From contig BK006940.2 of the NCBI GenBank assembly GCA_000146045.2, forward strand, positions 206,162 to 270,161: 64,000 nucleotides of DNA, in the 5' to 3' direction. The DNA comes from TPA_inf: Saccharomyces (Eukaryota). A program made the translations under genes and the position numbers. Positions 18,165 through 60,434 of this stretch are shown here, piece by piece. Under the pieces are notes generated by a model, which saw only the letters and a list, made by a program, of their open reading frames with translations, was not told the origin of the DNA and searched no databases. Within the stretch, counting starts at the first letter, position 1; each line of letters starts with the position of its first letter.

Positions 18165-18608
18165 CTACTTTAATTTGTCAAATAATCTAGGTGCCGTGGC
18201 AGTGTCCAAATAGTGCTGTAGATGGAAAAACTCCTCCACACAGTCCTCCTTGTGTTCAAGATCCGCGTAGCCGGGTTGTTGTTGCTGTATCTTGACTCTC
18301 TCAGCACACTCCTCGTAGTGGTGCACAAGGGCCTTACCCTCCTCCGTGTTCTTGAAATGTTCTCTCAAATCTTCCAACTGATCAGTGACTTCTTCCTCTT
18401 CTTCCTCATCTTCGTCGTCATCATCATCATCATCTTCGTCTTCGTCTTCATCCTCATCTTCATCCCCATTTTCTTCTTCTTTTTCTTCTCCTTCTGCTGC
18501 CTTTTCTTCATGCTGCTCGTTATCGTCATCTTCGGCCGCGGCCACAACAGGCACAACGGTTATCTTTAGTTGTTCCCAGTACTCACCAACTAGTTCCAAC
18601 ATGCCCAT
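18165..18608 (-). CDS. QCR6: Ubiquinol-cytochrome c reductase subunit 6, acidic hinge protein (147 aa)
   Basis: Protein MGMLELVGEYWEQLKITVVPVVAAAEDDDNEQHEE... with a long Asp/Glu run encoded by a (GAT/GAA)n tract at ~18400-18475. A HAP-type CCAAT box (ccattgg, 18845-18851) lies ~240 bp upstream. Confidence 0.9.
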   Translation of the reverse strand: MGMLELVGEYWEQLKITVVPVVAAAEDDDNEQHEEKAAEGEEKEEENGDEDEDEDEDEDDDDDDDEDEEEEEEVTDQLEDLREHFKNTEEGKALVHHYEECAERVKIQQQQPGYADLEHKEDCVEEFFHLQHYLDTATAPRLFDKLK

Positions 18609-18858
18609 TTTCTATTTCTTTTTCTTTATCCGTGTGTGTAGGTGTAAGTGTATATGTGTGCTTCTGTTAATGTGAGTGCGTGTATACAATATGTGCAAAT
18701 AAGCGCCAACCAATACTGCCCTTAAGACTGAGTAGGTCCTAATCTCGAAAACCCGGTGTGGGCCACTTTCCAGCAAAGCGCCTCTTATAACAAGCACCGC
18801 GCAGGGGAGGCGCGCCCCAGTCCGATATGCCCGGAACGTGCTTCCCATTGGTGCACGG

Positions 18859-21351: not shown

Positions 21352-23025
21352 TTACAATGACCACGGTTTGTACACCTGGGGCTGCAATTTTGCAATGGAG
21401 TCGCCTTCGCCTACTTCCTCGCCTTCCTTGCCTACACGTTTCACGCCATGTCCTGTGGCCGTATTGCCGTCTTCGTCATCGCCCTCCTGGTCCTTCTCCA
21501 CTAGTTGTATGCCCGAGTCTACTTGCTCCGAGATCAGTACCAGTTTCTTCGACACATTCAACTCCTCCAGCGACTTGTTCAGGTCAAGAATCTGTTTACT
21601 CAGTGATAATCGGTCGTTCAGCATCTTTTCAGATTCCTTCACATATTTCAGTTTTTCCATCTCCAGTTGCGTTTCTAGATCGCACAGCTTTGTAAACTTG
21701 CTCTCTAATTTCTCCATGGTCAGCTTGACTAACTCTTGGATTATCGCTTGGCTTTCTTCAATGTACTTTTCGGAGATCTCTCTCGACTTATCAGAGACCT
21801 TACCCAATTTGTCGTCGCCTTGCAGTAGCGTCTGGACAGCATCATTCACGCATTCCATCAACTTCGAACCGGACACACTACCATCGCGGCTGTCGCCACC
21901 CTTACCATTCAGCGTTGAACCAACAACTTCTCGGATGTAGTTGTCCTCGATCGGTAAGCTTAGGAATTTTTCAATGCAGTCTTCTACACGCTTGTGCCCA
22001 CCCACGTGGTCAGCAATCTTCTCCCACTGGTCTTCATACATTTCAATACCCTCCAGCAATAGTAGCATCTCCTGGTCTGACCAGTTTTTTTTAACCGAGT
22101 TTCCGTTGTTTTCTAATCTGATGAAATCTGAAGATTGAAAGTTGGCACCGAAATGACCCTCTTGGAAACAACGGGAGCACAGGTTGGTGTCCCGTGCACG
22201 CAAATTGTGGTAGCGCACATTGATTGACTCGTTACCGCATGTATGGCAAATGTAAACTTTGTGAATCTGCCTGGAGTTTCTACTTTCGTCTTGTAATGCA
22301 TTGAAGTCTTGTGCAGAATCGTAAACGTTCTTCTTGATTGTGAGATTAACGGGAAATTCCTTCTTGACTTGTGGTTCCGCTCCATCTCCTCCTTCCACTT
22401 CTTGCTTGATCACATTCTCTGGTAAAAATGGCTTTAACCCCTGCGGAGTGTCCAGAACCACTTGGAAGTGGCCCGTAAAACTTGGCCCAATAAGACTGGG
22501 CTTGGTCCTGGGGTCAATCTGATAATTGATTAAGCCCCATTTTTCCAAGAACGCGTGAATCTTCACTATCGAGGCAACATCCATGGCAACATTTCTTCTC
22601 ACAGCGGTAATGGTCAAATATTCGTACGGCGAAAGACGGTACGTGTTGATGATAAAATTTCTTGTGTCCTTATATGCCTTTGGTGTCTTGAACCTTGATG
22701 AATCGTTGAAAAAGTCGGGATTGGATCTTTTTTCGATCTCGTGGATCTTCGAAATATCAAACCAAGAGGCAAACGACGGAATAATCACCGGGTGAGTTTG
22801 CTTTGCCAGGAACCTAAGGGCCTTCTCCTCCAGTTTCTGTGCTTCTTGCTCGTAATTGATTTTCTTATGAGCTACTTCTGCTCCCAATGTGGCAGATTCC
22901 TCCTTCGCCTGTTCCTGTGCTAAGTGAGGGAAAGATGGCGTGTTGGTGCTTGTGGTGGGTGGCTCCTCGGTCGCTTCGTGCGAGTCTACCATAGGGACAT
23001 CCTTATCCTTTTCAGTGTCGCTCAT
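21352..23025 (-). CDS. RSC8: RSC chromatin remodeler subunit Rsc8/Swh3 (557 aa): SWIRM, ZZ and SANT domains
   Basis: Protein [23 protein letters not shown]...; an A/T homopolymer (T21, 21318-21338) immediately downstream. Confidence 0.9.
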
Positions 23026-47430: not shown

Positions 47431-48888
47431 TTAAGCGCCAATGATACCAAGAGACTTACCTTCGGCAATTCTTTTTTCGGACAATGCAGCAATAACAGCA
47501 GCACCTGCACCTGAACCATCCTCAGCTGGAACAATCGTAATTGGATCTTTGCTTGCGTCACCAGTCCATCCATAGATATCTCTCAAACCCTTAGCGGCGG
47601 CTTCCTTGAAACCTGGGTATTTGTTATAGACAGAACCGTCAGCGGCAATGTGACCAGTCTTGTAACCTCTCTTTTGGCAAATAGCGGCAATACCACAAAC
47701 AGCTAATCTAGCAGCTCTGGTACCGATCAATTCACAAAGTCTTCTAATCAACTTACGTTCTGGCAGAGTGGTCTTGACACCAAAGTCCTTTTGGAAGATG
47801 TCATCAGTATCTTCCAAGTTTTCAAATGGATCATCCTCGATTCTTGCTGGGTAGGAGGTATCCATGATGTATGGTTGTTTCAACTTGCTTAGATCTTGAT
47901 CCTTCAACATCAAGCCCTTCTCGTTTAATTCAAGTAACACTAGACGCAACAATTCACCCAAGTAGTAACCGGAGGTCATCTTTTCAAAAGCTTGTTGACC
48001 AGGTCTTGGAGATTGTTCGTCGACAGCAACATCGTACTTGGTTCTTGGCAAGACCAAATGTTCATTATCGAAGGAACCATATTCACAATTGATAGCCATT
48101 GGAGAGTTACTTGGAATATCGTCTGCTAATTTGCCCTCCAACTTTTCGATATCGGAAACAACATCATAGAAAGCACCGTTGACACCAGTACCGAAAATCA
48201 CACCCATCTTAGTCTCTGGGTCAGTGTAGTATGAGGCAATTAAAGTACCAACAGTATCATTAATCAATGCTACAATTTCAATAGGCAACTCTCTCTTGGA
48301 AATTTCGTTTTGTAGCAATGGGACGACATCGTGGCCTTCGACATTTGGAATATCGAAACCCTTGGTCCATCTTTGCAAAATACCTTCGTTAATCTTGTTT
48401 TGGGAAGCTGGGTACGAGAAGGTGAAACCTAATGGTAAGGTGTCCTTGGTGTTTAGCAATTCTTGCTCGACCATAAAGTCCTTCAAAGAGTCGGCAATAA
48501 AGGACCATAACTCCTCTTGGTGCTTAGTGGTTCTCATGTCATGTGGTAGTTTATACTTGGATTGAGTGGTGTCAAAGGTATGGTTACCGCTCAACTTGAC
48601 CAACACGACTCTTAAGTTAGTACCACCCAAATCAATGGCCAAATAGTTACCAGATTCTTTACCTGTTGGGAATTCCATGACCCAACCGGGAATCATTGGA
48701 ATGTTACCTCCCTTCTTTGTCAAACCTTTATTCAATTCGTCGATAAAGTGCTTAACAACCTTTCTCAAGGTCTCGCTGTCAACTGTAAACATATCTTCCA
48801 ACTGATGAATTTCATCCATCAATTCCTTGGGCACATCAGCCATGGAACCCTTTCTAGCCTGTGGTTTCTTTGGACCTAAATGAACCAT
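47431..48888 (-). CDS. HXK1: Hexokinase 1 (485 aa)
   Basis: Protein MVHLGPKKPQARKGSMADVPKELMDEIHQLEDMFTVDSETLRKVVKHFIDELNKGLTKKGGNIPMIPGWV... with LAIDLGGTNLRVVLV. Confidence 0.95.
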   Translation of the reverse strand: MVHLGPKKPQARKGSMADVPKELMDEIHQLEDMFTVDSETLRKVVKHFIDELNKGLTKKGGNIPMIPGWVMEFPTGKESGNYLAIDLGGTNLRVVLVKLSGNHTFDTTQSKYKLPHDMRTTKHQEELWSFIADSLKDFMVEQELLNTKDTLPLGFTFSYPASQNKINEGILQRWTKGFDIPNVEGHDVVPLLQNEISKRELPIEIVALINDTVGTLIASYYTDPETKMGVIFGTGVNGAFYDVVSDIEKLEGKLADDIPSNSPMAINCEYGSFDNEHLVLPRTKYDVAVDEQSPRPGQQAFEKMTSGYYLGELLRLVLLELNEKGLMLKDQDLSKLKQPYIMDTSYPARIEDDPFENLEDTDDIFQKDFGVKTTLPERKLIRRLCELIGTRAARLAVCGIAAICQKRGYKTGHIAADGSVYNKYPGFKEAAAKGLRDIYGWTGDASKDPITIVPAEDGSGAGAAVIAALSEKRIAEGKSLGIIGA

Positions 48889-49180
48889 CTTATTTTTTCA
48901 GTATTCTAATTGAGTTGTTTGGGTGAGTTTGATTAAAAGAAAAGAATTCTAATTGAGTATTGCAAGCCACAATTGTTTCTTATTGCTCTTCTGCTATATA
49001 TTGCGCTAAGAGAAAGAGAAGAATACAAGATGAAGGAACGGTAGAATATTCCCAAGGAAGTGAAACCGATTGCTTATATACGAAATATTCCTCTTTAAAG
49101 AAAAGGAGGAAACAGAAGCAGTTGAGAACAATCTTTGTTGCGTTCACTTGTTACTATTCCTCTCAACGGTCCTAAGGTAC

Positions 49181-49616
49181 CAAAATCCGGGGGGAGAAAG
49201 AAACTTTTTCTTTTCATCAACCCCTTAAAAAAAAATGCATAGTTCTTAGGTCTTCCATTTTTTCTTTTGTTGGTTTTTGCAACCAGAGTATTTTTCCTGG
49301 TTGCTCCAGTAAGGTATTTCGCTATCTTCCAACAAACGGGGCACACGTGCGGGAGTTTCAAAGGGGCAGAATAGTGGGGTTCAGGGGCATAAGAAGCTCA
49401 CACAATGCGGAAAAACAAAAGGGGACTGCCATTCTTCCTGAAACCCACGCGTCACTGCTATACTGAGATCTGGCCAGGGGCAACCAGTATACTTAGTGGA
49501 TAAACGACAGGAACACGTACTCCTTAAAAGCGTCTAAATCTTCATTTTTCCGGTTTATTTCCAACCGGGAAATAAATTATTCCTAATAAAATTTCCGGGG
49601 TTTGCAGGATGCGGGG
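49181..49616. promoter_or_regulatory. HXK1 upstream region: Mig1-type GC boxes and a cluster of STRE (CCCCT/AGGGG) elements
   Basis: Mig1-like sites: aaaatCCGGGGgg at 49181-49194, aaaatttCCGGGG at 49587-49600, atGCGGGGtaaaag at 49607-49620. STREs: CCCCT at 49221-49225; AGGGG at 49363-49367, 49383-49387, ~49422-49426 and 49476-49480. Confidence 0.5.
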
Positions 49617-50213
49617 TAAAAGTAAAAAAATGAAAAAGATGTAAAAAGAAAAGTTCGAGGTAAGACCAGGTGCAAGGAGAATACTGGGCGCCAATGCTTT
49701 TACTGCAGCGAAGAAAAATTCTAACCGTCTGTTTCGGTTGCTAATTTTTGTCTTACTTTCGATGGTTAGGCTTCGTGGGGTAAAAGTCGAGCTTGTTTTC
49801 TGAAGCGGAAATTACAGCAGTTTGCTAGGTGAGTTTTAACTTTCCTAGTTGCATCCCATGGTCTAGATAATCACCCCACCCCACGCCATTCTTTTTTTGC
49901 AACACGGGCTTTGTTCCTGAAACAACTGGCATGGAAGATATTCCGGGGTTGTTTAACAATAAACGTGTAGAGTACAGGTAGAATATAGGCGAAGCCGCGG
50001 TGAGCACGGAATCGCGCATGGAAGAAAACACACCAGGTAAGCCTTTGGAACGCCATGTGTAAGGTGCAATGCACATGAGTGATTGTTAAAAACAGAAAAG
50101 TAAAAATTCCGATCTTGTCTGGAGGATCAATCGTCCTCTCAGTGCGTTTTCTTGGCGAGACAATTCAATTCGCTTTATGCTCTTTTTTTTTGTGAATTTA
50201 GCCAATTCCGGAA

Positions 50214-50224
50214 AAAACATAAAA
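50214..50224 (-). promoter_or_regulatory. Exact ARS consensus match (TTTTATGTTTT on the minus strand) in an AT-rich intergenic stretch; candidate replication origin
   Basis: Plus strand AAAACATAAAA matches WAAAYRTAAAW 11/11. A T-rich tract lies 30 bp away. I recall an ARS annotated near this position, but that is unverified. Confidence 0.3.
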
Positions 50225-50999
50225 AAATGGTTATGCATTCTTTATTTTGAAGAATGAACTAGATATACAGTAATATACTAAATTGTCAGCTCTCGGCATA
50301 ATTCAATGGCCGGAAAGTAGTACTATTAAAAAGAAGTGCGCTCAAAGAATAACTCCGGGAATAGGTGATGTAGCTTTTGGTGCTGGAAGCGAACCGCTTT
50401 CATGTGTTTTGGTCCCGGCTGTAGTGTTCTGCGGAGTTGCACTGGTGCTGTTGGTAGAGATTACGATTTTGGTAAATCCTGGTGTGACGGCTACATCAGT
50501 ACCTCTAGTTAGACCAAACACTAATTCAATGCCAAAACTTAGACGCCCGATGATATTCCTTGTATATATATTATTATCCGCTATGGGCACAGAAGTATGT
50601 TTAACAGTAGCAGAAGCGACTTATGTATGGATGTCCAACAACGAAGATGCCACAAACGTCTTCGTAGTTTTATCCACGGCGCCAGGTCTGGAGAATGGAC
50701 ACCAGGGTACTAAAATCATTAATTGCTCTTCCACCATCCTAACGTTGTTGACATTTAGTGTAGATACTTGGTGAAATATGTGCTTGTGAAAGCGATTGTC
50801 CATTCTTTATATATAGTCATGAAAGTAGTTAAAGTGAAGAATATATTAGAAGCTTTGGGTTCAAAAGAGGACGGTGAAGTGGCTCGCTTTGTTAATATAT
50901 TGATTTATCCGAAACCCGGGAAGCACTCTAGAACTATGCCTTAGCATTTTAGTGGTCGAACTAGCCAGTTTTTCGATTGTTGGATGTGTTGTAATGACG

Positions 51000-53300
51000 G
51001 TATTATTTTTGCTCAATGAGTTAAAAGGCGAAAGCGTCAAATTGTAGGTCAGAATATGACTGACAGAATCAAACTGTCTGACAATTGCACAGGAGGATTG
51101 GCCGGAGTAAAATCGTTTAAGGTAGTATAAGCAGGTTGAGCAGACAATTGGCTAGAGCTAGCCATTGAGCCTAAAGAATTGCGAACAAGTCGGATAAGAC
51201 AAAGGGAACTAATGTACAAGATCTTGTATCCTGAGAAGAGGAAATAAGTACTCAAGAATGGGCCAGAAATAATGTTAGAGTTTATAGGGGTGACAGCCCT
51301 TGAGCTAATAAATACTACAATAACAGTGTCCGTTTGAATGCTGGTCGGTGAATCAATCAAAGATTTGGTTGCAATGATATGTGCAATTTTGCTGATGGAG
51401 CTTGCTAAAGTTGTGATATTAGTCGAGATCCAATTAGAACGGATTAGGCGGGAATCGCTTGAGGGATCGCCAAAAATACTTGTGATTTGTGTAAGTTGGT
51501 TGTAATGCAAACCTGCTATCTTTACTTTCGAACAAAATAGATGAATCAGCGGCTAAGTATTCTGTGGCTAATGTGCTAGATACATGTTGAGTACTGCTAT
51601 TTGTGCGCAACCGTTCTAACAATGCTGAGAGATGATGAATTGAATATATCAGAAGTTTTACTAGCTACAGTAGTTGAGGTACCAATAGTGGGGGTATGCG
51701 AAAATTTACTAAAAGCACTGACTGGAGTTGTGGTACTAGTGAATACCTGGTCCAAATAGGTTATGAAGGAATCATTTGAGAATTGGCTAGAAGCAACTAA
51801 AACGCCCGTGGATTGAGGTTCAGATTTGCTACTGTCGCTTTCGAAGAAGCTAGATGAACCACGGGTAAAGTATTCTGCATCTAATGTGTTCAATAAATAT
51901 TGAGTGACGTTATCGTAATGTTACAGTACTAACACCGCTAGAAAATGCTGGTGTGAATGTGAATGACGATAGACGGACTGATGCACTTTTCCATTGTACG
52001 ATAACATTACTTACAAGATTGGGAGAAGCATGATTGAAAATTTGACTGGAAGAACCACTTATATTAGGAGTGGCGGTATTAGTAGAAAATTGACTAAACG
52101 CATCCGAAAATTAAATAGAATTTAAAGTTTCCTTGGGTGCACTGTTTTGGGCTGCAGTGCTAAAATCCAGAAGTGTTGGAGTCAGGTTACTTGTTTGCAT
52201 ACAGACATTACTGAAGTTTTCAGAAGGCCTTTGAATCGAGAACGAGATAAGGAAGTGTCCTCTAAATGCAATTTTAGAGCTCAAAGTGAGGATAGTGGCA
52301 CTGAAACTTGATTTAGTTAATGGCCTTTAGATTTGCTGCTGTCTGAAAAGCTCATCATCGAGAAGCTCACAAAATGGAGTTCTAGTTGCCCTTTCACTAT
52401 ACAATCGATGTAAAGATGGCTTATAAGTATTTGAATTGTAAGTTTTGTGCTAGCTGAGGAATCAAAAAATGTATTTAGTGCTTCCTTACTGGTCAATTGT
52501 GTATTATTTCCAGATGAAACAGAAAATATGTATTTTATGGATTGACTAATCAAGTCACTTGCTGATTGTGTAATAGTGGTGGTTAAAGAAAGTACAGTAA
52601 GTTTGCTTGAAATACAGGCAGGATTCCTGGAATACTGCCTACTACTGCTTATTGAATAGAGTGTAATCTCGCCAAACCCAGTAATAGCATCGTTTAAGAA
52701 ATGGTGCTTACTTGTAGGTAAAACTTCTGAAGGATACTGAGTAAATGTAAAATTATATGAGTTAAGGCAGAATGACTGTAAACTTTTGTGACGAATCTGG
52801 AAGATGCATTCGTCGATTGGCCTTCATTAAGTGAAGATTGGTAACCTATTGCATCCAAACCAGAAGTAATACAACCAGAATGTGGAGATGAGGAGCCAAC
52901 AGGTGTGTATCCAGAAGGTTCAGCCACAGGTTGGTCATCAATACCACTGGGGGAGCATGCAATATAATCAGATGGTTGCGAGGAATAGCTAGTAGAGCTA
53001 AAACTGAACACATTAGTTAAGATTAGACTAGCCATGCTCAAAGAAACAATTAGAGAGGCACCTACATGTTCGTTATCCATTTTTGAGGAAAAAATAGAAG
53101 TGATAATAATAATTTTGCTCGAACTACTCGTAAAGCTACTTGAAAAACGGCTCGAGATTACGGAAGAGTCGGTAGTAAACCGACTCTCAGTGTCACGGAA
53201 TGGAAGCGCCTTGAAACTACTAATATCAGGTATGCATTGAGGGGCAAGGCAACCTGAATATGCAAAGAGCATAGTCTTAACTTTCGTAGTACGTAATACT
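51000..53300. repeat. Degenerate tandem array of ~300-bp units (about 7 copies, ~60-75% identity between copies)
   Basis: Example: 51527-51566 tttcgaacaaaatagatgaatcagcggctaagtattctg against 51836-51875 tttcgaagaagctagatgaaccacgggtaaagtattctg. Also gatttgctactgtcgc at 51823 against gatttgctgctgtctg at 52331, and gaatcgcttgagggatcgcc at 51452 against gaatcatttgagaattggct at 51770. Confidence 0.6.
52694..53272 (-). CDS. 192-aa Ser-rich ATG ORF inside the repeat array; position and size fit YFR054C (uncharacterised)
   Basis: ATG at 53270-53272; the protein is low-complexity and Ser/Thr-rich ([24 protein letters not shown]...). It may simply be the longest surviving frame of the decayed gene described in the findings. 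Confidence 0.35.
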
Positions 53301-55134
53301 TCGGCATTAATTTGGCCTACCGCTTTGCCACAGTTGAGTGGTCACTGGAGTATTAGCCATGAAAAAATGATCCCTTGTATATCCAGGCCCAAAGTCTAAA
53401 ATGTACTTCCTGCCAATGGTTGTCACAGCTAATATTCCATTTTGAATTGACTTGATTTTTAGATTATTATCATGGAACCAAGTTGATGTCTTGCAATTTC
53501 TGATTTTTAACGATGTACTGGAGGTTGACGACTAGGCAAATCTGCGAAACATCCTAGTACAATGGCATTTGGTTCTGATGACAAAACAATAGTTTGTTCC
53601 TCCACTGAAATGTTATTCAAATCTTCGATATAAAAAATGCGGTAATTTCAGACCCAAAGACATCCATTACCCATCATGCTAAATTGTGGGATAAGATATA
53701 TATGGTTAATTGATCTGATTCAGCTGCAATAATATCGGTATTTATTATGGTACCTTCCATGCTCTTTGCCGAACTGCAGATAACCTGCGTCTGCAAATTG
53801 CAGGAATTACTGAAAATGAAATTGCTAAACTTTGGGAGCTACTAGAAGAAAAATGAGTACCTCTCCTACTTATATTTCCCATTTTCTTGAAGGTTTCTCC
53901 TTCCCATATAAGAATTCCAAACGGTGTTCCTTTACAAACCCATAAGGGTATTAAAATGATTCTCAAAATTTCCTACTGCACTATTGTTTTTTCTTTCTAA
54001 TAGATGAATCATCCGTACACACACAGAGACCACCGTTTACTTTCATATCAGAATAGAAGTTGTGAAAGCTACCTACGAGACTTAAATAAACATCTTTTTC
54101 GATGGTGAGCTTTTCATGGTAATTCGTCGAGACAGTAACTGTTTTGCTCTTTTCTATGATGTCTAAAGCCAAAACAATGTCCATCAAGACTAGCGTAATA
54201 AAAATCAACCTGCTCATTGACAATTGGATTATTTTTGGCTGTTCAAGATTAAAACAGACTCAGTAGGCAAAAACTTCAATCAATAGTACCGGGAAGATGA
54301 CATTCCGGTCTAAGTGGTATTATACACTTATAGTAAAGTCACGTCAACCTTTGTTACTTTTCTTAATTGATTATATACGCACTCTTCTCAATATTTGATT
54401 TCTTCATCGAAAAGATCTACACGAAGTTTTTATCATGTGTTAGCGTGATGGAAAAGATCTGTGCACGTTTAATTAGAATTGCAAAAGCTTCAATGGGTTT
54501 GATTGAGATTTTTATTTTCAATTCACTCATCTTGATGTTCACCACCAAGCCTACATCGAAACTTTGAAATACAGGAAAGTTGCAGGAGGCTTTATTGGTT
54601 GAATTGAAAAAGAAAGGAAGAAAAACGTAATGGTAAAATAAAACTCGACTATGGCGCAACCGATAGAGAGTTTAGTGGCATTAGAAATTTTAAAAGAAGC
54701 TTTAAACTACAAAGTGTTCTTCTGAATCTGAATAAGGTCACTTACATAGAAACCTACTTACCTCAAAAGCGTAATTCCGAAAGGCAAAAGAAAAACTTTT
54801 GTAGAATCTTCAGCTGCTAGAAGTTCAAATAGAAGACAAATTACGGACTTGTTGCAGTATATGCCAAGCTACAGAAGAAATTATATTTCTTAATACGTAC
54901 AGAAGGTATGAAACGTTAGTTTACTCACAGAAGATACCCTGGCTTTTCTTTTATTAATACATGGAGTTGCAAAAAACAAGGGAAAGGAAAATCAATCAAA
55001 TTAGAATTAAGGTTTTTTTTGGACAGTGCAGCGTCAATGCGCACGTAATGGCTTCGAAGAAAAAAAGAAGGCAAATACAATGAAGCTGAGATCTTGTTTT
55101 ATCATGAGGGGAAATAAATTGGAAGCATTGAAGT

Positions 55135-55335
55135 TGTTGGAATGAAACTCTAAAATATCATCTGTTTAGTAGTATCGTGTTACTAGTACATTATCACATA
55201 CAGTGTAAGAAAATGACATTAGGTATGAGAAACAGTCATCAAATCTAATGGAAGCGAAATTCAAGGGTTGGTGATGTAATAGGATAATGAAACATATAAA
55301 ACGGAAGTAAAAATAATCGTAATATTACAAGGAGA
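55135..55335 (+). mobile_element. 5' ~200 bp of a Ty1/Ty2 delta LTR, truncated solo remnant
   Basis: TGTTGGAATgaaactctaaaatatcatctgtttagtagtatcgtgttactagtacattatcacatacagtgt ... gatgtaataggataatgaaacatataaaacggaagtaaaaataatcgtaatatta is collinear with delta TGTTGGAATAGAAATCAACTATCATCTACTAACTAGTATTTACATTACTAGTATATTATCATATACGGTGT...GATAATGTAATAGGATCAATGAATATAAACATATAAAACGGAATGAGGAATAATCGTAATATTAG. Confidence 0.6.
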
Positions 55336-58042
55336 CCAAACAAACAGTCGAGAGAAGCGTATGCACAATCATGCAAGAAAAATTTTCTGGAAGAATTTAT
55401 TTAATCTTAAATTACAAATCTTAGTAGTAATGGTCACTTCTGATAGTTTCGAAAAAGGAAAGAGGAGATGACTATTGAGTCAAATTTTTTTGACGGAAAC
55501 TTAGCGACCGAAAAATATATATGATAATAAGAAAACGAATGGCATACAATGATTAGTTTCAAATATTTCACGCGCAAAGAAAGAATTCTACTACCGGAGT
55601 GTGCCCTTCTTGTACTTTATTATCAGACTGTGTCTCTCTAATTGCGTGTTGTCCGCGGAATAATGCTCTAATTTAAAAAATCGACATATTCTGACTTGTA
55701 TGGCGCTTTGCATTGGTGTTTATATGTTAATAACCCCTAATCATACTCTATATGAATACTTTCAAATTTACCAACACAATAAAATCTTCATATTCTCATG
55801 CATGTTTTGCCCTGTATCACTAAATAATACATACTTTACCGAAGCTGGTTGTATTTCGTGTATATCATAGCCAATGATGCCGTTATAATGTCCGAAATAT
55901 TATCGCTTAATGAAGGGAAGCAGCTAACAAATATGACAAATACAGCAATTTCTTACACCGGTAACTAATGATTATACAAACAAGACTTGATTTTTTTTAT
56001 GGCCTGTAAGAATATATCATAACGTGAGTTCTAGATATTTAAAGTTCTTTATGCATATTCTAGTCTACGTATATAGGAGTTCCAAAAAAAAAAAAAATTA
56101 AATGCACGTTATTCTTGACGCTAGTGTAAGTTTTTATGTACTTTACCTGCTAGCTTCGTATTTCTGTCTTGGGATATTCTTGTCCCTATTATGAGAATGT
56201 ACAATATGCAAAATAAAGGTAAAAGATTTGAAAAAGAGAAAATACCCAAATATCAACAAAACTACCTCTATAGGACCTGTCTCATGGTCTTGACAACTTT
56301 ATGCGAAATAAGAACACGATCGTTATATCACTTAACGCTTGAGATATATACAGAATGTAGTACATGTCGGCCCTTCTACGGATTTATTACCATGTGTATA
56401 CTAGAATTGATACCGGCAACCCATAGTGACTTTTAACAGGGCAATTGGATTTGCATAAAAGTATATACAGTAATAATAATATTTCCTGATGAGAAAGGTG
56501 GAAAGTATCGAGTTATGTGTACCTTCAATACCAATCTCTACCTCTCGTTAATAGTGCCACAATGCTATGGATTCTAAGCAATTTAAACCGCATAGCTATT
56601 AGTGTAGACTTCCCACTGTATTTGAATGACACGTTGCCTTCATTCCTTGTTGCGCTGAACTTTCACGTCAGATATATATACATAAGTGCAATAGAGGCCT
56701 AGGCTAATCTGCAAATTTCTCATAGATGTACACCGCCTGTGCCGTACGGCATCGCTATCTTCTGAAAGGAAACTGTAGTAAATTTACCAAAATATCTCCG
56801 AATAAAAAGAAGAGGAACATCTTTTAATGAATTATAGAGTACAAAAGAATCATTTAAAAGAGAGGGCGAGTGAAAACATGAAAAGAAACGTTACTAACTT
56901 AATTGACCTTAAAGTAGCCTCACCAGTTAAGTGCATTATTGATCATTCCATGAATAACCATTTTTAAAGACTAAGATGCTGAGTTGTGTTATATAGAGAG
57001 AAAAAAACGTACTTTCAGTTTCCATATGAGGTGGAGCGCAGGTCATAGGTATGCCGGCTCATTGTTTTCTATTTTAAAAAGTAAAAAATATGCTGCTAAA
57101 GGAACACGTGAGAAATTACATTCTCCCTAGGTCTGCGATAACGCGGTAATATTACACTGCCGCCGCCTTCCATGCCTTTGGAAAGCAGACAATGATGCTA
57201 GGCGGCGCCCAGCAGTATAAACTTTTCTTGCTTATAACCAGAACCTCTATCACAAAATTAGAAACTGCGATACTATGGGTCAGATCGACACATAGGGAGC
57301 ACTATTAGGCGCAAGGCGTATACATAGGCATTGCGTGTTCAAAAATTGTCGTATGAGAAAAGTTCCAAACTTTCCACCATTACTCACCAACAACTTACAC
57401 CAGCCCGGATTTAAGATTTAGCTTCCGAGAATATTGTGACTCAGCCACTGGTCTCTTGAATGTTGCGTGTAGCTTGATTAAGATTATGGCATAACCGTTT
57501 TTTTTACTTGGCAAGAGTGAACGTCCTTTTACTCCAAAAGGCTCCTGATGAAACTGGAGAGTCTCTTTGTTCTGAAATTTTTAAAGTTTAGCACACCATA
57601 TTCACGCTCGAGGTGAACCCAAGTTTTCCTGAAAAATGTGCCATGAACCTGAAAAAAAGAATTATTCTCGAAAATAAAAAAGGCAATCAAGATCGGAAAG
57701 ATAAGCATTTTTTTTCAATCCGTATCTAACATTCATAAAGTGATAAAAAAATTGATAACGATTTTATTGTCGCCTCTTGTTTTGAGTATATTTTTTTAAC
57801 GTTCTTTTTCGGCATTCAAATTCCGTATAATCAACTCAATTGTAAGGCGCCGTAGCATCCAAATAATGTTGAAAGTGCCAATTTGCTCATCAGTGCTAAA
57901 TATTCCTTGATAAAAATATAGAAGACAAGGACATATAAAAAGAAAGACTGCTCTAGTGTTGGGACACCACAATGAAAAAATACTTAACGTGTTTCGAAAC
58001 TGTGAATATAAAATTCCAGCAAAAACCAAAATATTCACTACA

Positions 58043-59065
58043 ATGATTGATCGTACCGAGTTATCGAAGTTTGGTATTACTACGCAACTGTCTGTTATTG
58101 GACGTAATCCAGATGAACAAAGTGGCTTTGTTAATCCACCTTTGTATAAGGGGTCAACCATCATTCTTAAAAAACTTAGTGATTTAGAACAAAGGAAAGG
58201 AAGATTTTACGGGACAGCAGGTTCTCCAACTATTGACAATTTAGAAAATGCCTGGACGCATTTAACCGGCGGTGCTGGGACAGTGCTATCAGCTTCTGGG
58301 CTTGGTTCTATCTCTTTGGCGCTATTGGCCCTTTCGAAAGCTGGTGATCATATCTTGATGACTGATAGTGTCTACGTGCCAACACGTATGCTATGTGATG
58401 GTTTATTGGCCAAGTTCGGTGTTGAAACGGATTATTATGACCCATCAATAGGGAAGGATATAGAAAAACTAGTTAAGCCAAATACAACCGTCATTTTCCT
58501 CGAAAGCCCGGGTTCTGGGACCATGGAAGTACAGGATATTCCAGCTTTGGTCTCTGTTGCCAAAAAGCATGGGATAAAGACAATTCTAGACAACACATGG
58601 GCAACGCCACTCTTTTTTGATGCTCATGCGCATGGTATCGATATTTCGGTAGAAGCTGGGACAAAATATTTGGGTGGTCATTCAGATCTTCTTATTGGTC
58701 TGGCCTCCGCAAATGAAGAATGTTGGCCGCTATTACGGTCAACTTATGATGCAATGGCAATGTTACCAGGTGCCGAGGACTGTCAATTAGCATTGCGAGG
58801 AATGCGTACATTGCACTTAAGATTGAAAGAGGTAGAAAGAAAAGCCCTGGATTTGGCTGCTTGGCTCGGAAATCGAGATGAGGTTGAAAAAGTGCTTCAC
58901 CCCGCCTTTGAAGATTGTCCCGGACATGAATACTGGGTTCGTGACTACAAAGGTTCTTCAGGCTTATTTTCCATTGTCCTTAAAAATGGGTTCACAAGAG
59001 CTGGTCTGGAGAAAATGGTAGAAGGGATGAAAGTTTTGCAATTGGGATTTTCATGGGGTGGCTAG
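58043..59065 (+). CDS. IRC7: Cystathionine beta-lyase / cysteine-S-conjugate beta-lyase Irc7 (340 aa, full-length allele), PLP-dependent
   Basis: Protein MIDRTELSKFGITTQLSVIGRNPDEQSGFVNPPLYKGSTI... of the Cys/Met-metabolism PLP family. The ORF-track start at 57956 is GTG; the first ATG is at 58043. Confidence 0.9.
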   Translation: MIDRTELSKFGITTQLSVIGRNPDEQSGFVNPPLYKGSTIILKKLSDLEQRKGRFYGTAGSPTIDNLENAWTHLTGGAGTVLSASGLGSISLALLALSKAGDHILMTDSVYVPTRMLCDGLLAKFGVETDYYDPSIGKDIEKLVKPNTTVIFLESPGSGTMEVQDIPALVSVAKKHGIKTILDNTWATPLFFDAHAHGIDISVEAGTKYLGGHSDLLIGLASANEECWPLLRSTYDAMAMLPGAEDCQLALRGMRTLHLRLKEVERKALDLAAWLGNRDEVEKVLHPAFEDCPGHEYWVRDYKGSSGLFSIVLKNGFTRAGLEKMVEGMKVLQLGFSWGG

Positions 59066-60434
59066 AAAAGCTTCAACATGGCCTTACAAAGGTTTTGCAC
59101 TAAGAATACAAGTGGGTCTCGAAGAATTTGAAGATTTAAAAAGGGATTTTGAGTTAGGCTTTGAACGTCTCGCAGAAGAAATTTCTTTGAATCCTTTACA
59201 AATCTGATTTTTTTTCCTTTTTTTTTTGGATTTCCAAGCAATGTTGTTTGAGAAATGAATGAAATTTTTGACTATAGCTTGTCTTAGGCAGGCTGGAGTA
59301 GACAACCATCTAGTAGCCAATGTTTGCCCAGTTAATATATGGTTCAATTTTCTAGCTGTATCATATTATGGATGATGAAGCAGATAATCTTTCTTTTTTC
59401 TGTATGTCTGATTGTAATAAAGAGGCTTACCATATTGTGAATGCATTTCAATGACACTGCATAATGAAGTCATTGTATTTAGAAAAGTAATAATTTTGTA
59501 TTGTATAAAGATAGAAAAAACGTATATCGTACTTATTCAGCGGAAATGATTCTGCTTTATCTACTTGCGTTCCTGAATATAATATTTGTGAACCAGGCTT
59601 GAGCTTGACACTACAGATTTTTTAGTTCGATTTCATTCAGTAGAGAAAGGCATATCAATATGACATGTGATCTCACTCCGCGGCTAAATGCTAGCAATAA
59701 AAAGAATACCGTAATAGAGATGCAGCAAAATAACCACTGGTGTTTAAGAAATAATATGATTACGTCAGTAACCGAAGAGCCCGTACGCACTCTGCTACCA
59801 TAGACTATGTATATTGTTACCTATTGTAAATAGCTATGGTTACTCTAAGTACGTATGGTGCTATGCATCTCGGTGAACGGATGCAATTATGAAAGTGTAG
59901 GTCAGAACATCATCGGTGGTTTTGTCGTGTAAAAAAGGTTATAAGGAAAATTATACTCACATGATTTTATTCATCATCGTCTGTGTATCGCTTCAATTAA
60001 CATTTTGAAAAAGAGATTACTTTATATGACGTTATGTATATCTTTCAACTTAAATAACCTTAGCTGGCAAAATAAAGAATAAGATAAGGGCCAAGAAGAA
60101 CGCTAATACTCGTTTTTTTTCAACTACAAAACAACTAGTTGGATAATTTTGAAACAACAAAGTAGAAGTTGTACATATATTTTTGCGCATATGGCTCTGA
60201 AATATCGTATTTTTCAAAAGCCCGATACAAAGCCGTCAGCAATACCCATAGTTAAAGATTCCTTGATAACCTATAGCTTCCGTAGACAACAACACAAATT
60301 TACCACCTACTTTTAACTCACCCATGTTTTTCAGTTTATCAATGAATCTAATAAACGTGGCTTACGTAACAGCTCCGCATGGACTTGAATTTACTCCTAG
60401 CGAGCCTAGTGTTTTAATTGCTTGCATACAATCT

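Follow-up and report, generated by a model that had tools for sequence, protein, structure and literature searches.

YFR054C as a piece of a probable pseudogene of a Hyr/Iff-like wall adhesin on Saccharomyces cerevisiae chromosome VI

What is YFR054C? This open reading frame (ORF) of 192 aa lies on the minus strand of a 64,000-nt stretch of Saccharomyces cerevisiae S288C DNA (contig BK006940.2), which covers the last 64 kb of chromosome VI (chrVI 206162–270161) and is called the window below; positions are those of the window unless marked chrVI. An original prediction, made from the letters of the window, took the ORF for the longest surviving frame of one long, decayed gene for a secreted wall protein. 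Our follow-up agrees on this point. With a probability of roughly 93%, positions 50275–54217 (minus strand, ~chrVI 256436–260378) are a unitary pseudogene, a "gene remnant" left in place, of an ancestral cell-surface adhesin-like gene, and YFR054C is an accidental open stretch within its former stalk. The remnant sits ~10–14 kb from the right-arm end of the chromosome, with HXK1 on one side and IRC7 on the other.

The original prediction also held that this interpretation had not been recorded. That belief was wrong, because the remnant has been published, with its ATG at 54217, as REMYFR054C (REMFLO13), chrVI 256456/256524–260378 on the Crick strand, in "Core gene set of the species Saccharomyces cerevisiae" (bioRxiv 10.1101/2023.09.07.545205; PMC12157680). 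The published span corresponds to window positions 50295/50363–54217 and is the same object as ours. It is described as spanning YFR054C, as carrying numerous stops and frameshifts, and as intact in S. paradoxus, S. kudriavzevii, others and a few introgressed S. cerevisiae strains, and YFR054C is proposed to be called dubious (PMC12157680). The remnant is labelled there a flocculation gene similar to FLO1/5/9/10/12 and a whole-genome duplication (WGD) paralog of FLO5, and Hyr/Iff, PA14 and adhesin domains go unmentioned (bioRxiv 10.1101/2023.09.07.545205). The interpretation as such is thus already published, and the sole new element here is the family to which the N-terminal domain belongs. 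We find a Hyr/Iff-like (Hil) domain at the N-terminus, with flocculin-like features at the C-terminus only; we also add a lesion count and set the 3′ end slightly further out.

Intact orthologs and the decay of the S288C copy

Stop-to-stop fragments occupy all three minus-strand frames from 54259 to ~50760 and are rich in Ser and Thr throughout (S+T fraction 0.22–0.36), as the original prediction of fragments in at least three frames had it. When concatenated, these fragments retrieved four full-length proteins with E-values of 1e-108 to 1e-258: S. paradoxus SPAR_F01150 (1770 aa), S. kudriavzevii SKDZ_06G1230 (1720 aa) and the proteins of S. cerevisiae strains AVB (1811 aa) and AHL (1562 aa). 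An S. eubayanus-type ortholog of the same architecture, S. pastorianus GRS66_007373 (1254 aa), shares the leader, the N-terminal domain (N-domain), the Ser/Thr stalk, the Flocculin_t3 repeat and a ..YAGIANNL..hydrophobic tail.

On CBS432-type chrVI of S. paradoxus, as in S. kudriavzevii ZP591 and S. cerevisiae AHL, the intact gene is flanked by IRC7 (a Cys_Met_Meta_PP gene of 400 aa) and HXK1 (a hexokinase gene of 485 aa). A long ORF between HXK1 and IRC7, which the original prediction had named as a check, does exist in these genomes, and the remnant occupies the ancestral syntenic position (IRC7 homolog–HXK1) of a gene that is intact in relatives. Alignments of three intact orthologs to the window by tblastn are collinear from 54217 to 50363. 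By blastn, the window is collinear with S. paradoxus chrVI over the whole interval, with 72–76% identity inside the remnant against 87.7% in the 10 kb towards HXK1. The limits of the remnant are drawn from these collinear matches, from a frameshift-aware alignment and from the junction at its 3′ end.

All intact orthologs open with a signal-peptide-like leader, followed by an N-terminal domain, a repeat region rich in Ser and Thr and a tail of the glycosylphosphatidylinositol (GPI) anchor type. The central region is Ser/Thr-rich in both the living and the dead gene, with an S+T fraction outside the N-domain of 0.39–0.44 in the orthologs and 0.31 in the S288C reconstruction. Judged by eye, the ortholog leader (MRSLIFITLVLASIALA, cut before LD) combines a basic n-region with a hydrophobic core and shows A-x-A ahead of the predicted cut, and the C-terminus (..YAGTANNL(V/L)SN...hydrophobic tail) is GPI-like. 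The S288C counterpart of this leader opens at the predicted ATG, 54217, with the first surviving ORF (53981–54217, minus strand; 78 aa, beginning MSRLIFITLVLMDIVLALD), which holds the signal-peptide-like leader and the start of the N-terminal domain, is disconnected from the rest by the first frameshift (~53995) and meets its stop at 53981. Its leader, MSRLIFITLVLMDIVLAL followed by D, pairs in the alignment with MRSLIFITLVLASIALA-LD, the leader of the intact orthologs; read by eye as MSRLIFITLVLMDIVLA before LD, the S288C version has an Asp within the core. In the frameshift-aware alignment, the ORF matches ortholog residues 1–74.

YFR054C itself (52694–53272, minus strand), the longest ORF of the region and ATG-initiated, is an internal fragment equivalent to about ortholog residues 320–510, at the start of the Ser/Thr-rich stalk. 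Its 192-aa product is identical to the UniProt/NCBI entry "Uncharacterized protein YFR054C". It has neither a leader nor a domain of its own, and a Pfam scan gave no match. On the chromosome, we take YFR054C to lie at chrVI 258855–259433.

To count the lesions, the 1562-aa allele was aligned to positions 54217–50230 by protein-to-DNA dynamic programming with frameshifts (BLOSUM62, frameshift −14, stop −8). This frameshift-tolerant comparison, another check named beforehand, matched 1310 codons (60.4% amino-acid identity) across 20 frameshifts and 5 in-frame stops, and left 252 ortholog residues with no counterpart in S288C. Six of the frameshifts (~53995, 53907, 53807, 53758, 53708 and 53517) and two of the stops (53932 and 53648) break the N-terminal effector domain described below. 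A seventh frameshift (~53312) falls just beyond it, and the others lie at ~52761, 52432, 52374, 52297, 51921, 51602, 51487, 51077, 50881, 50774, 50361, 50294 and 50242, with the remaining stops at 52317, 52111 and 50621. The frameshift at 50242 falls beyond the deletion junction on its 3′ side and probably reflects an artefact of the alignment. A looser nucleotide alignment with 70 gaps was judged to be inflated by paired +1/−1 artefacts and was replaced by the protein-to-DNA alignment. The S288C copy has therefore suffered multiple independent disabling lesions, not a single null mutation, as a pseudogene should.

The 3′ part of the gene has lost more. A deletion of 73 codons (residues 1286–1358 of the 1562-aa allele), placed by the alignment at 50690–50740 (minus strand) with the tblastn high-scoring segment pair resuming at 50713, took most of the single Flocculin_t3 repeat (residues 1331–1370) and left its VPWCPFS tail. 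The last recognisable coding stretch, which ends in NSTTFRPLNYARADNLV and covers the omega-site region, lies at 50275–50362 (minus strand) according to blastn, the alignment and the junction. Directly 3′ of 50275, ~220 nt of S. paradoxus sequence are absent, among them the final 56 nt of the coding sequence, with the stop and the codons for SNGLWSVFVSTVLLAFYR, the hydrophobic tail of the putative GPI signal. Our 3′ end, ~50275, is set at this deletion and lies slightly beyond that published for REMFLO13; of the extent first proposed, the start at 54217 stands, and the 3′ end moves out past 50800–51000.

In S288C, the frame is first lost after codon 74. Because of this frameshift, the six breaks in the effector domain and the missing anchor signal, a functional product is not expected, and neither a full-length nor an anchored product, nor a complete effector domain, can any longer be made from the remnant. 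The lesions and the use of the locus as a neutral deletion control both point to non-function; yfr054c deletion strains have served as controls with wild-type-like growth (PMC3348152).

The repeat content of the stalk proved simpler than first described. Instead of about seven units of a ~300-bp array in 51000–53300, we find two units, each recovered by self-blastn, nhmmer and protein self-comparison: unit 1 (51647–51958, minus strand; 313 bp, ~104 codons, beginning HYDNVTQYLLNTLDAEYFTRGSSSFFESDSS) and unit 2 (51336–51645, minus strand; beginning NSSTQHVSSTLATEYLAADSSILFESKDS), which has ~60% DNA identity to unit 1. Self-blastn yields one significant pair (51958–51695 against 51645–51378, offset 313 bp, 59.7% identity over 268 nt, E 1e-15), and the frame-corrected translation, compared with itself in queries of 80-aa chunks, contains a sole duplication at an offset of 104 aa. 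The seven-unit reading was dropped because Tandem Repeats Finder (minimum score 30) reports no array in 49000–56000, a repeat search with seed 8 returns short two-copy chance matches only, and no period dominates the offset autocorrelation of 51000–53300. An nhmmer profile built from both units found no third copy (next best E 0.42).

Unit 1 corresponds to the large central repeat of the orthologs, which have 2–3 copies of the large unit together with micro-repeats of 26/52/78 aa, against the two units of S288C. The copy number of these Ser-rich micro-repeats, which are nested in the large repeat, varies greatly among intact alleles (residues ~840–1170 of P0003, compared with the 1562-aa allele and with 51336–51958 of the window) and accounts for the different lengths of the intact alleles (1562, 1770 and 1811 aa). 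The S288C relic is without the micro-repeat expansion and has gaps of 40 and 14 residues in unit 1.

The N-terminal domain and its family

To which family did the lost gene belong? The frame-corrected translation retains the remains of a Hyphal_reg_CWP (Hil) effector domain at 53360–54193 (minus strand, end approximate). The frame-corrected N-terminal part of 339 aa matches PF11765 at residues 9–283 (profile 2–286 of 328; 35.5 bits against a cut-off of 28; E 6.9e-9), and the uncorrected 78-aa ORF covers profile positions 2–69 (E 3.7e-5, 23.2 bits, under the 28-bit cut-off). In the four intact orthologs, PF11765 spans residues 9–294 at 92.8–97.9 bits, the match by which Hil proteins are defined. 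Each of the four also has one PF13928 (Flocculin_t3) repeat near its C-terminus (25.9–34.7 bits, cut-off 21.9). These two families are all that Pfam assigns to them at E≤0.01, with PA14 and GLEYA absent, and the S288C fragments match neither PA14 nor GLEYA even at E≤10. A Pfam scan of the full 1320-aa reconstruction returned zero families, probably owing to a composition filter. The N-terminal domain of the dead gene is of the Hil type and not of the PA14 flocculin type, and because this domain is PF11765, S. cerevisiae carries a Hil relic.

Relatives of the domain at the sequence level are scarce. A phmmer search over 1.8 billion representatives found few, and those with names, from Lachancea fermentati, Naumovozyma dairenensis and Scheffersomyces, are called "hyphally-regulated cell wall proteins". 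In Lachancea, a pre-duplication genus, SAKL0C00330g has been listed as a homolog with Hyphal_reg_CWP (PMC3276118). A word-indexed homolog search with the N-domain returned Saccharomyces fragments only, and the S. paradoxus N-domain, searched by sequence against the PDB, had a chance match only (E 0.067).

Structure prediction points the same way. An AlphaFold2 model of an N-domain fragment (P0005, built on an 11-sequence alignment) from the allele of AEH, an S. cerevisiae assembly described below, is predicted to be all-beta with short strands throughout (predicted local distance difference test (pLDDT) 81, predicted template-modelling (TM) score 0.80); pLDDT is below 50 for residues 1–19. The top four PDB matches of this model in Foldseek are A-domains of the Candida glabrata adhesins Awp3b and Awp1 (PDB 7o9q, 7o9o and 7o9p), with a probability of 1.00, TM scores of 0.52–0.63 and ~260 aligned columns, and they are followed by weak matches only, to other beta-helix proteins. 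As modelled for the AEH allele, the domain would therefore adopt the beta-helix fold of Hil effector domains. Sequence identity to these A-domains of adhesin-like wall proteins is 13–15%, a resemblance at the level of the fold only, and we claim no membership in the Awp1/3 cluster.

The Saccharomyces gene shares with the Hil family (C. albicans Hyr1/Iff, C. auris Hil1–8 and C. glabrata AWP cluster V) its PF11765 N-terminal domain, its architecture of putative signal peptide, effector domain, Ser/Thr repeat stalk and putative GPI signal, and its location near a chromosome end. Its proteins are distant members, with 25–34% identity to those of Lachancea, Naumovozyma and Scheffersomyces, and they carry a Flocculin_t3 repeat. 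For Smoak et al. (bioRxiv 10.1101/2022.02.09.479577), S. cerevisiae exemplified a yeast that has zero Hil homologs. That statement holds for the intact genes of S288C; the relic, together with the genes of sister species, nevertheless attests to a family that once existed here and was later lost.

Constraint, history and rival explanations

Has the S288C copy evolved like a dead gene? Rough estimates, from uncorrected distances and an alignment that favours amino-acid matches, put the ratio of nonsynonymous to synonymous divergence (dN/dS) between S. paradoxus and S. kudriavzevii, both intact, at 0.10 in the N-domain and 0.45 in the rest of the gene, and that between the S288C relic and the S. 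paradoxus type at 0.22 and 0.63; the controls give 0.03–0.04 (HXK1) and 0.07 (IRC7). On the same rough footing, with S. kudriavzevii as the outgroup, the N-domain branch is 0.11 for S288C against 0.04 for S. paradoxus (~2.7×), an asymmetry absent from HXK1 and IRC7. Taken together, dN/dS and branch lengths indicate that the sister-species genes are constrained and that the S288C copy is relaxed relative to its intact orthologs, as is characteristic of a pseudogene.

The ancestral gene would have encoded a cell-surface adhesin-like protein of roughly 1250–1800 aa, with, in order, a cleavable signal peptide, a Hil-type beta-helix effector domain, a Ser/Thr-rich stalk, one Flocculin_t3 repeat, which contains cysteine, and a GPI-anchor signal. 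The stalk, presumably O-glycosylated, would have held the 2–3 copies of the large repeat and the short Ser-rich micro-repeats. Family, fold and architecture make it most likely that the product was a secreted, GPI-anchored, adhesin-like wall protein; it would have been heavily O-glycosylated and would have displayed the beta-helix effector domain on the stalk. Our searches turned up no literature on the function of the Saccharomyces ortholog, although they did not ask for it directly. Sister species have kept the gene intact under purifying selection; in the S288C lineage, function was probably lost first, with frameshifts, stops and deletions accumulating afterwards. An N-domain dN/dS so far below 1 makes it probable that the gene still worked during part of the S. 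cerevisiae branch, as far as such rough values can tell.

A wider history is possible, though we hold it only tentatively and would sooner bet against it as a whole: S. cerevisiae would have lost its only Hil adhesin after the split from S. paradoxus, all the sister species examined would have kept it under purifying selection, functional copies would return solely via introgression, and the published label of FLO13 and FLO5 paralog would name the wrong family. Introgressed strains with intact copies are YJM248, YJM1252 and YJM1078 according to the literature, and AHL and AVB here. The AHL allele is S. paradoxus-like, with an N-domain 99.3% and an IRC7 99.8% identical to those of S. paradoxus, in agreement with the literature view that intact S. 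cerevisiae alleles are introgressed. If intact alleles are gained only in this way, such strains may have a capacity for surface adhesion otherwise absent from the species, and their alleles offer a natural test of the role of a Hil adhesin in Saccharomyces.

The reading of 50275–54217 as a unitary pseudogene is carried by observed homology, synteny, disabling lesions, domain family and relaxed constraint, and by the fold obtained for a related allele. Several points weigh against it or temper it. The N-domain dN/dS of 0.22 indicates that part of the S. cerevisiae branch was still constrained, and the number of frameshifts depends on the alignment penalties, the looser nucleotide alignment having given many more small indels. 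The Foldseek E-values of the Awp matches are marginal (5e-3 to 0.1), and the modelled protein is a 266-aa fragment of another allele, not the S288C sequence. The adhesin nature, secretion and GPI anchoring of the intact protein are deduced, with signal peptide and GPI tail judged by eye. Residual roles of the remnant DNA or of its short ORFs may also persist, as the analysis is one of sequence.

Could the remnant instead be a true flocculin of the FLO1/5/9/10 type ("FLO13"), a WGD paralog of FLO5 that flocculated through a mannose-binding PA14 lectin domain? The published description carries that label, and the overall layout anticipated by the original prediction does fit: FLO1, FLO5, FLO9 and FLO10 likewise encode large wall proteins that are rich in Ser and Thr and GPI-anchored, and they too lie close to chromosome ends. 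Common to both groups is the Flocculin_t3 repeat found near the C-terminus of the orthologs, where flocculin-type repeats are present and the S288C copy is mostly deleted. The C-terminus of the S. eubayanus-type ortholog has PF00624 Flocculin repeats as well as PF13928 (precomputed matches), and the GPI tail (..YAGTANNL..hydrophobic) looks Flo-like when set against FLO1/5. This similarity is, however, limited to the C-terminal third. None of the four intact orthologs has PA14 or GLEYA at E≤0.01, all four have PF11765 at 93–98 bits, and the S288C relic itself matches PF11765; the fold, as modelled, is a beta-helix like that of Awp1 and Awp3b, not a PA14 beta-sandwich. Because the PA14 domain is absent, the ligand-binding module belongs to a family other than that of the FLO proteins, and we regard a flocculin origin as very improbable. 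The flocculin architecture first proposed thus stands for the general layout and the C-terminus and fails at the N-terminal domain.

Less probable again is that some fragment of the dead gene, YFR054C or another, has survived as a small gene with a function of its own. YFR054C is an ATG-initiated ORF of 192 aa, and an identical protein is found on 484 contigs of S. cerevisiae assemblies. It nevertheless lacks a leader, a domain and any Pfam match, is an internal piece of the stalk, and has no separate ORF as its counterpart in species with the intact gene; its deletion strain serves as a neutral control, and the literature proposes "dubious". Gene models over the stretch that fall in the same 90% cluster measure 81, 128, 192, 206, 221, 243, 288 and 335 aa; where the ORF begins and ends thus changes from strain to strain, which is what an unmaintained frame should show. 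Least credible, to the point of being negligible, is a non-coding subtelomeric satellite or repeat array that mimics Ser/Thr-rich frames. The chromosome end is near and the 313-bp duplication is real, but there are two units and no array, an Rfam scan of 49000–58500 matched no family, and the whole 3.9 kb aligns at the protein level to intact sister-species genes in the same position, which already refutes a satellite.

The unitary pseudogene bears mainly on annotation: YFR054C is best regarded as part of a dead gene, which lends support to the widespread choice of this locus as a neutral site for integrations or deletions. The remnant belongs under the Hyr/Iff-like adhesins and not the PA14 flocculins, which corrects a detail of the gene-remnant paper. 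It also qualifies the claim that the Hil family has no S. cerevisiae homolog, as the family was in the Saccharomyces ancestor and was lost in this lineage.

A third haplotype and the surrounding DNA

Over the region orthologous to 50275–59300, there is a third S. cerevisiae haplotype class (AEH and another assembly; CPA/CPI). Its HXK1 is close to that of S288C (99.9% identity in AEH, 97.3% in CPA). In IRC7, by contrast, it has only 85% identity to S288C and likewise to S. paradoxus CBS432, although those two agree with each other at 90.5%; the AEH Irc7p is identical to the Irc7p of JAY291. The Hil allele of this class is also broken, though less so, with 9 frameshifts and 13 stops in AEH and 5 frameshifts and 2 stops in CPA; a frameshift at codon 255 is common to both. 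A ~15-kb region on the right of chrVI has been described as an S. paradoxus introgression, 99.8% identical to its S. paradoxus homolog (PMC8082247). An origin of the AEH/CPA haplotype in some lineage outside the S. cerevisiae/S. paradoxus pair, first considered because its IRC7 is equally far from both, was set aside on the strength of this report, and the haplotype is treated as a known polymorphism, with the discrepancy to CBS432 noted; if the introgression is true, S. paradoxus holds two haplotypes of the IRC7 region ~15% apart.

The flanking genes are readily recognised in the window. On the HXK1 side, the ORF at 47431–48888 (minus strand) encodes a hexokinase whose translation starts MVHLGPKKPQARKG. 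On the other side, the IRC7 frame at 58043–59065 (plus strand) stops after 340 codons, against 400–401 aa in its orthologs; we take this to be the known short allele of S288C and many wine strains. From the ATG of the remnant to IRC7 run ~3.8 kb of ORF-poor DNA (54218–58042), and the corresponding interval upstream of the intact gene is ~4.5 kb in S. paradoxus and S. kudriavzevii. Over its first 1 kb, S288C and S. paradoxus are 72.7% identical. Such long upstream regions are typical of adhesin genes with complex regulation.

Elsewhere in the window, weak tblastn matches to the Ser-rich micro-repeats of S. paradoxus occur at 18178–18609 and 21401–22084, both on the plus strand (28–44% identity, E 1e-4 to 1e-6). 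These are probably compositional and due to other Ser-rich genes. Finally, an exact match (TTTTATGTTTT) to the consensus of the autonomously replicating sequence (ARS), WTTTAYRTTTW, lies at 50214–50224 (minus strand), ~50 bp past the 3′ deletion junction; the window contains 6 matches to this consensus against 3.2 expected. ARS609 maps to about this position (chrVI ~256.3–256.4 kb).

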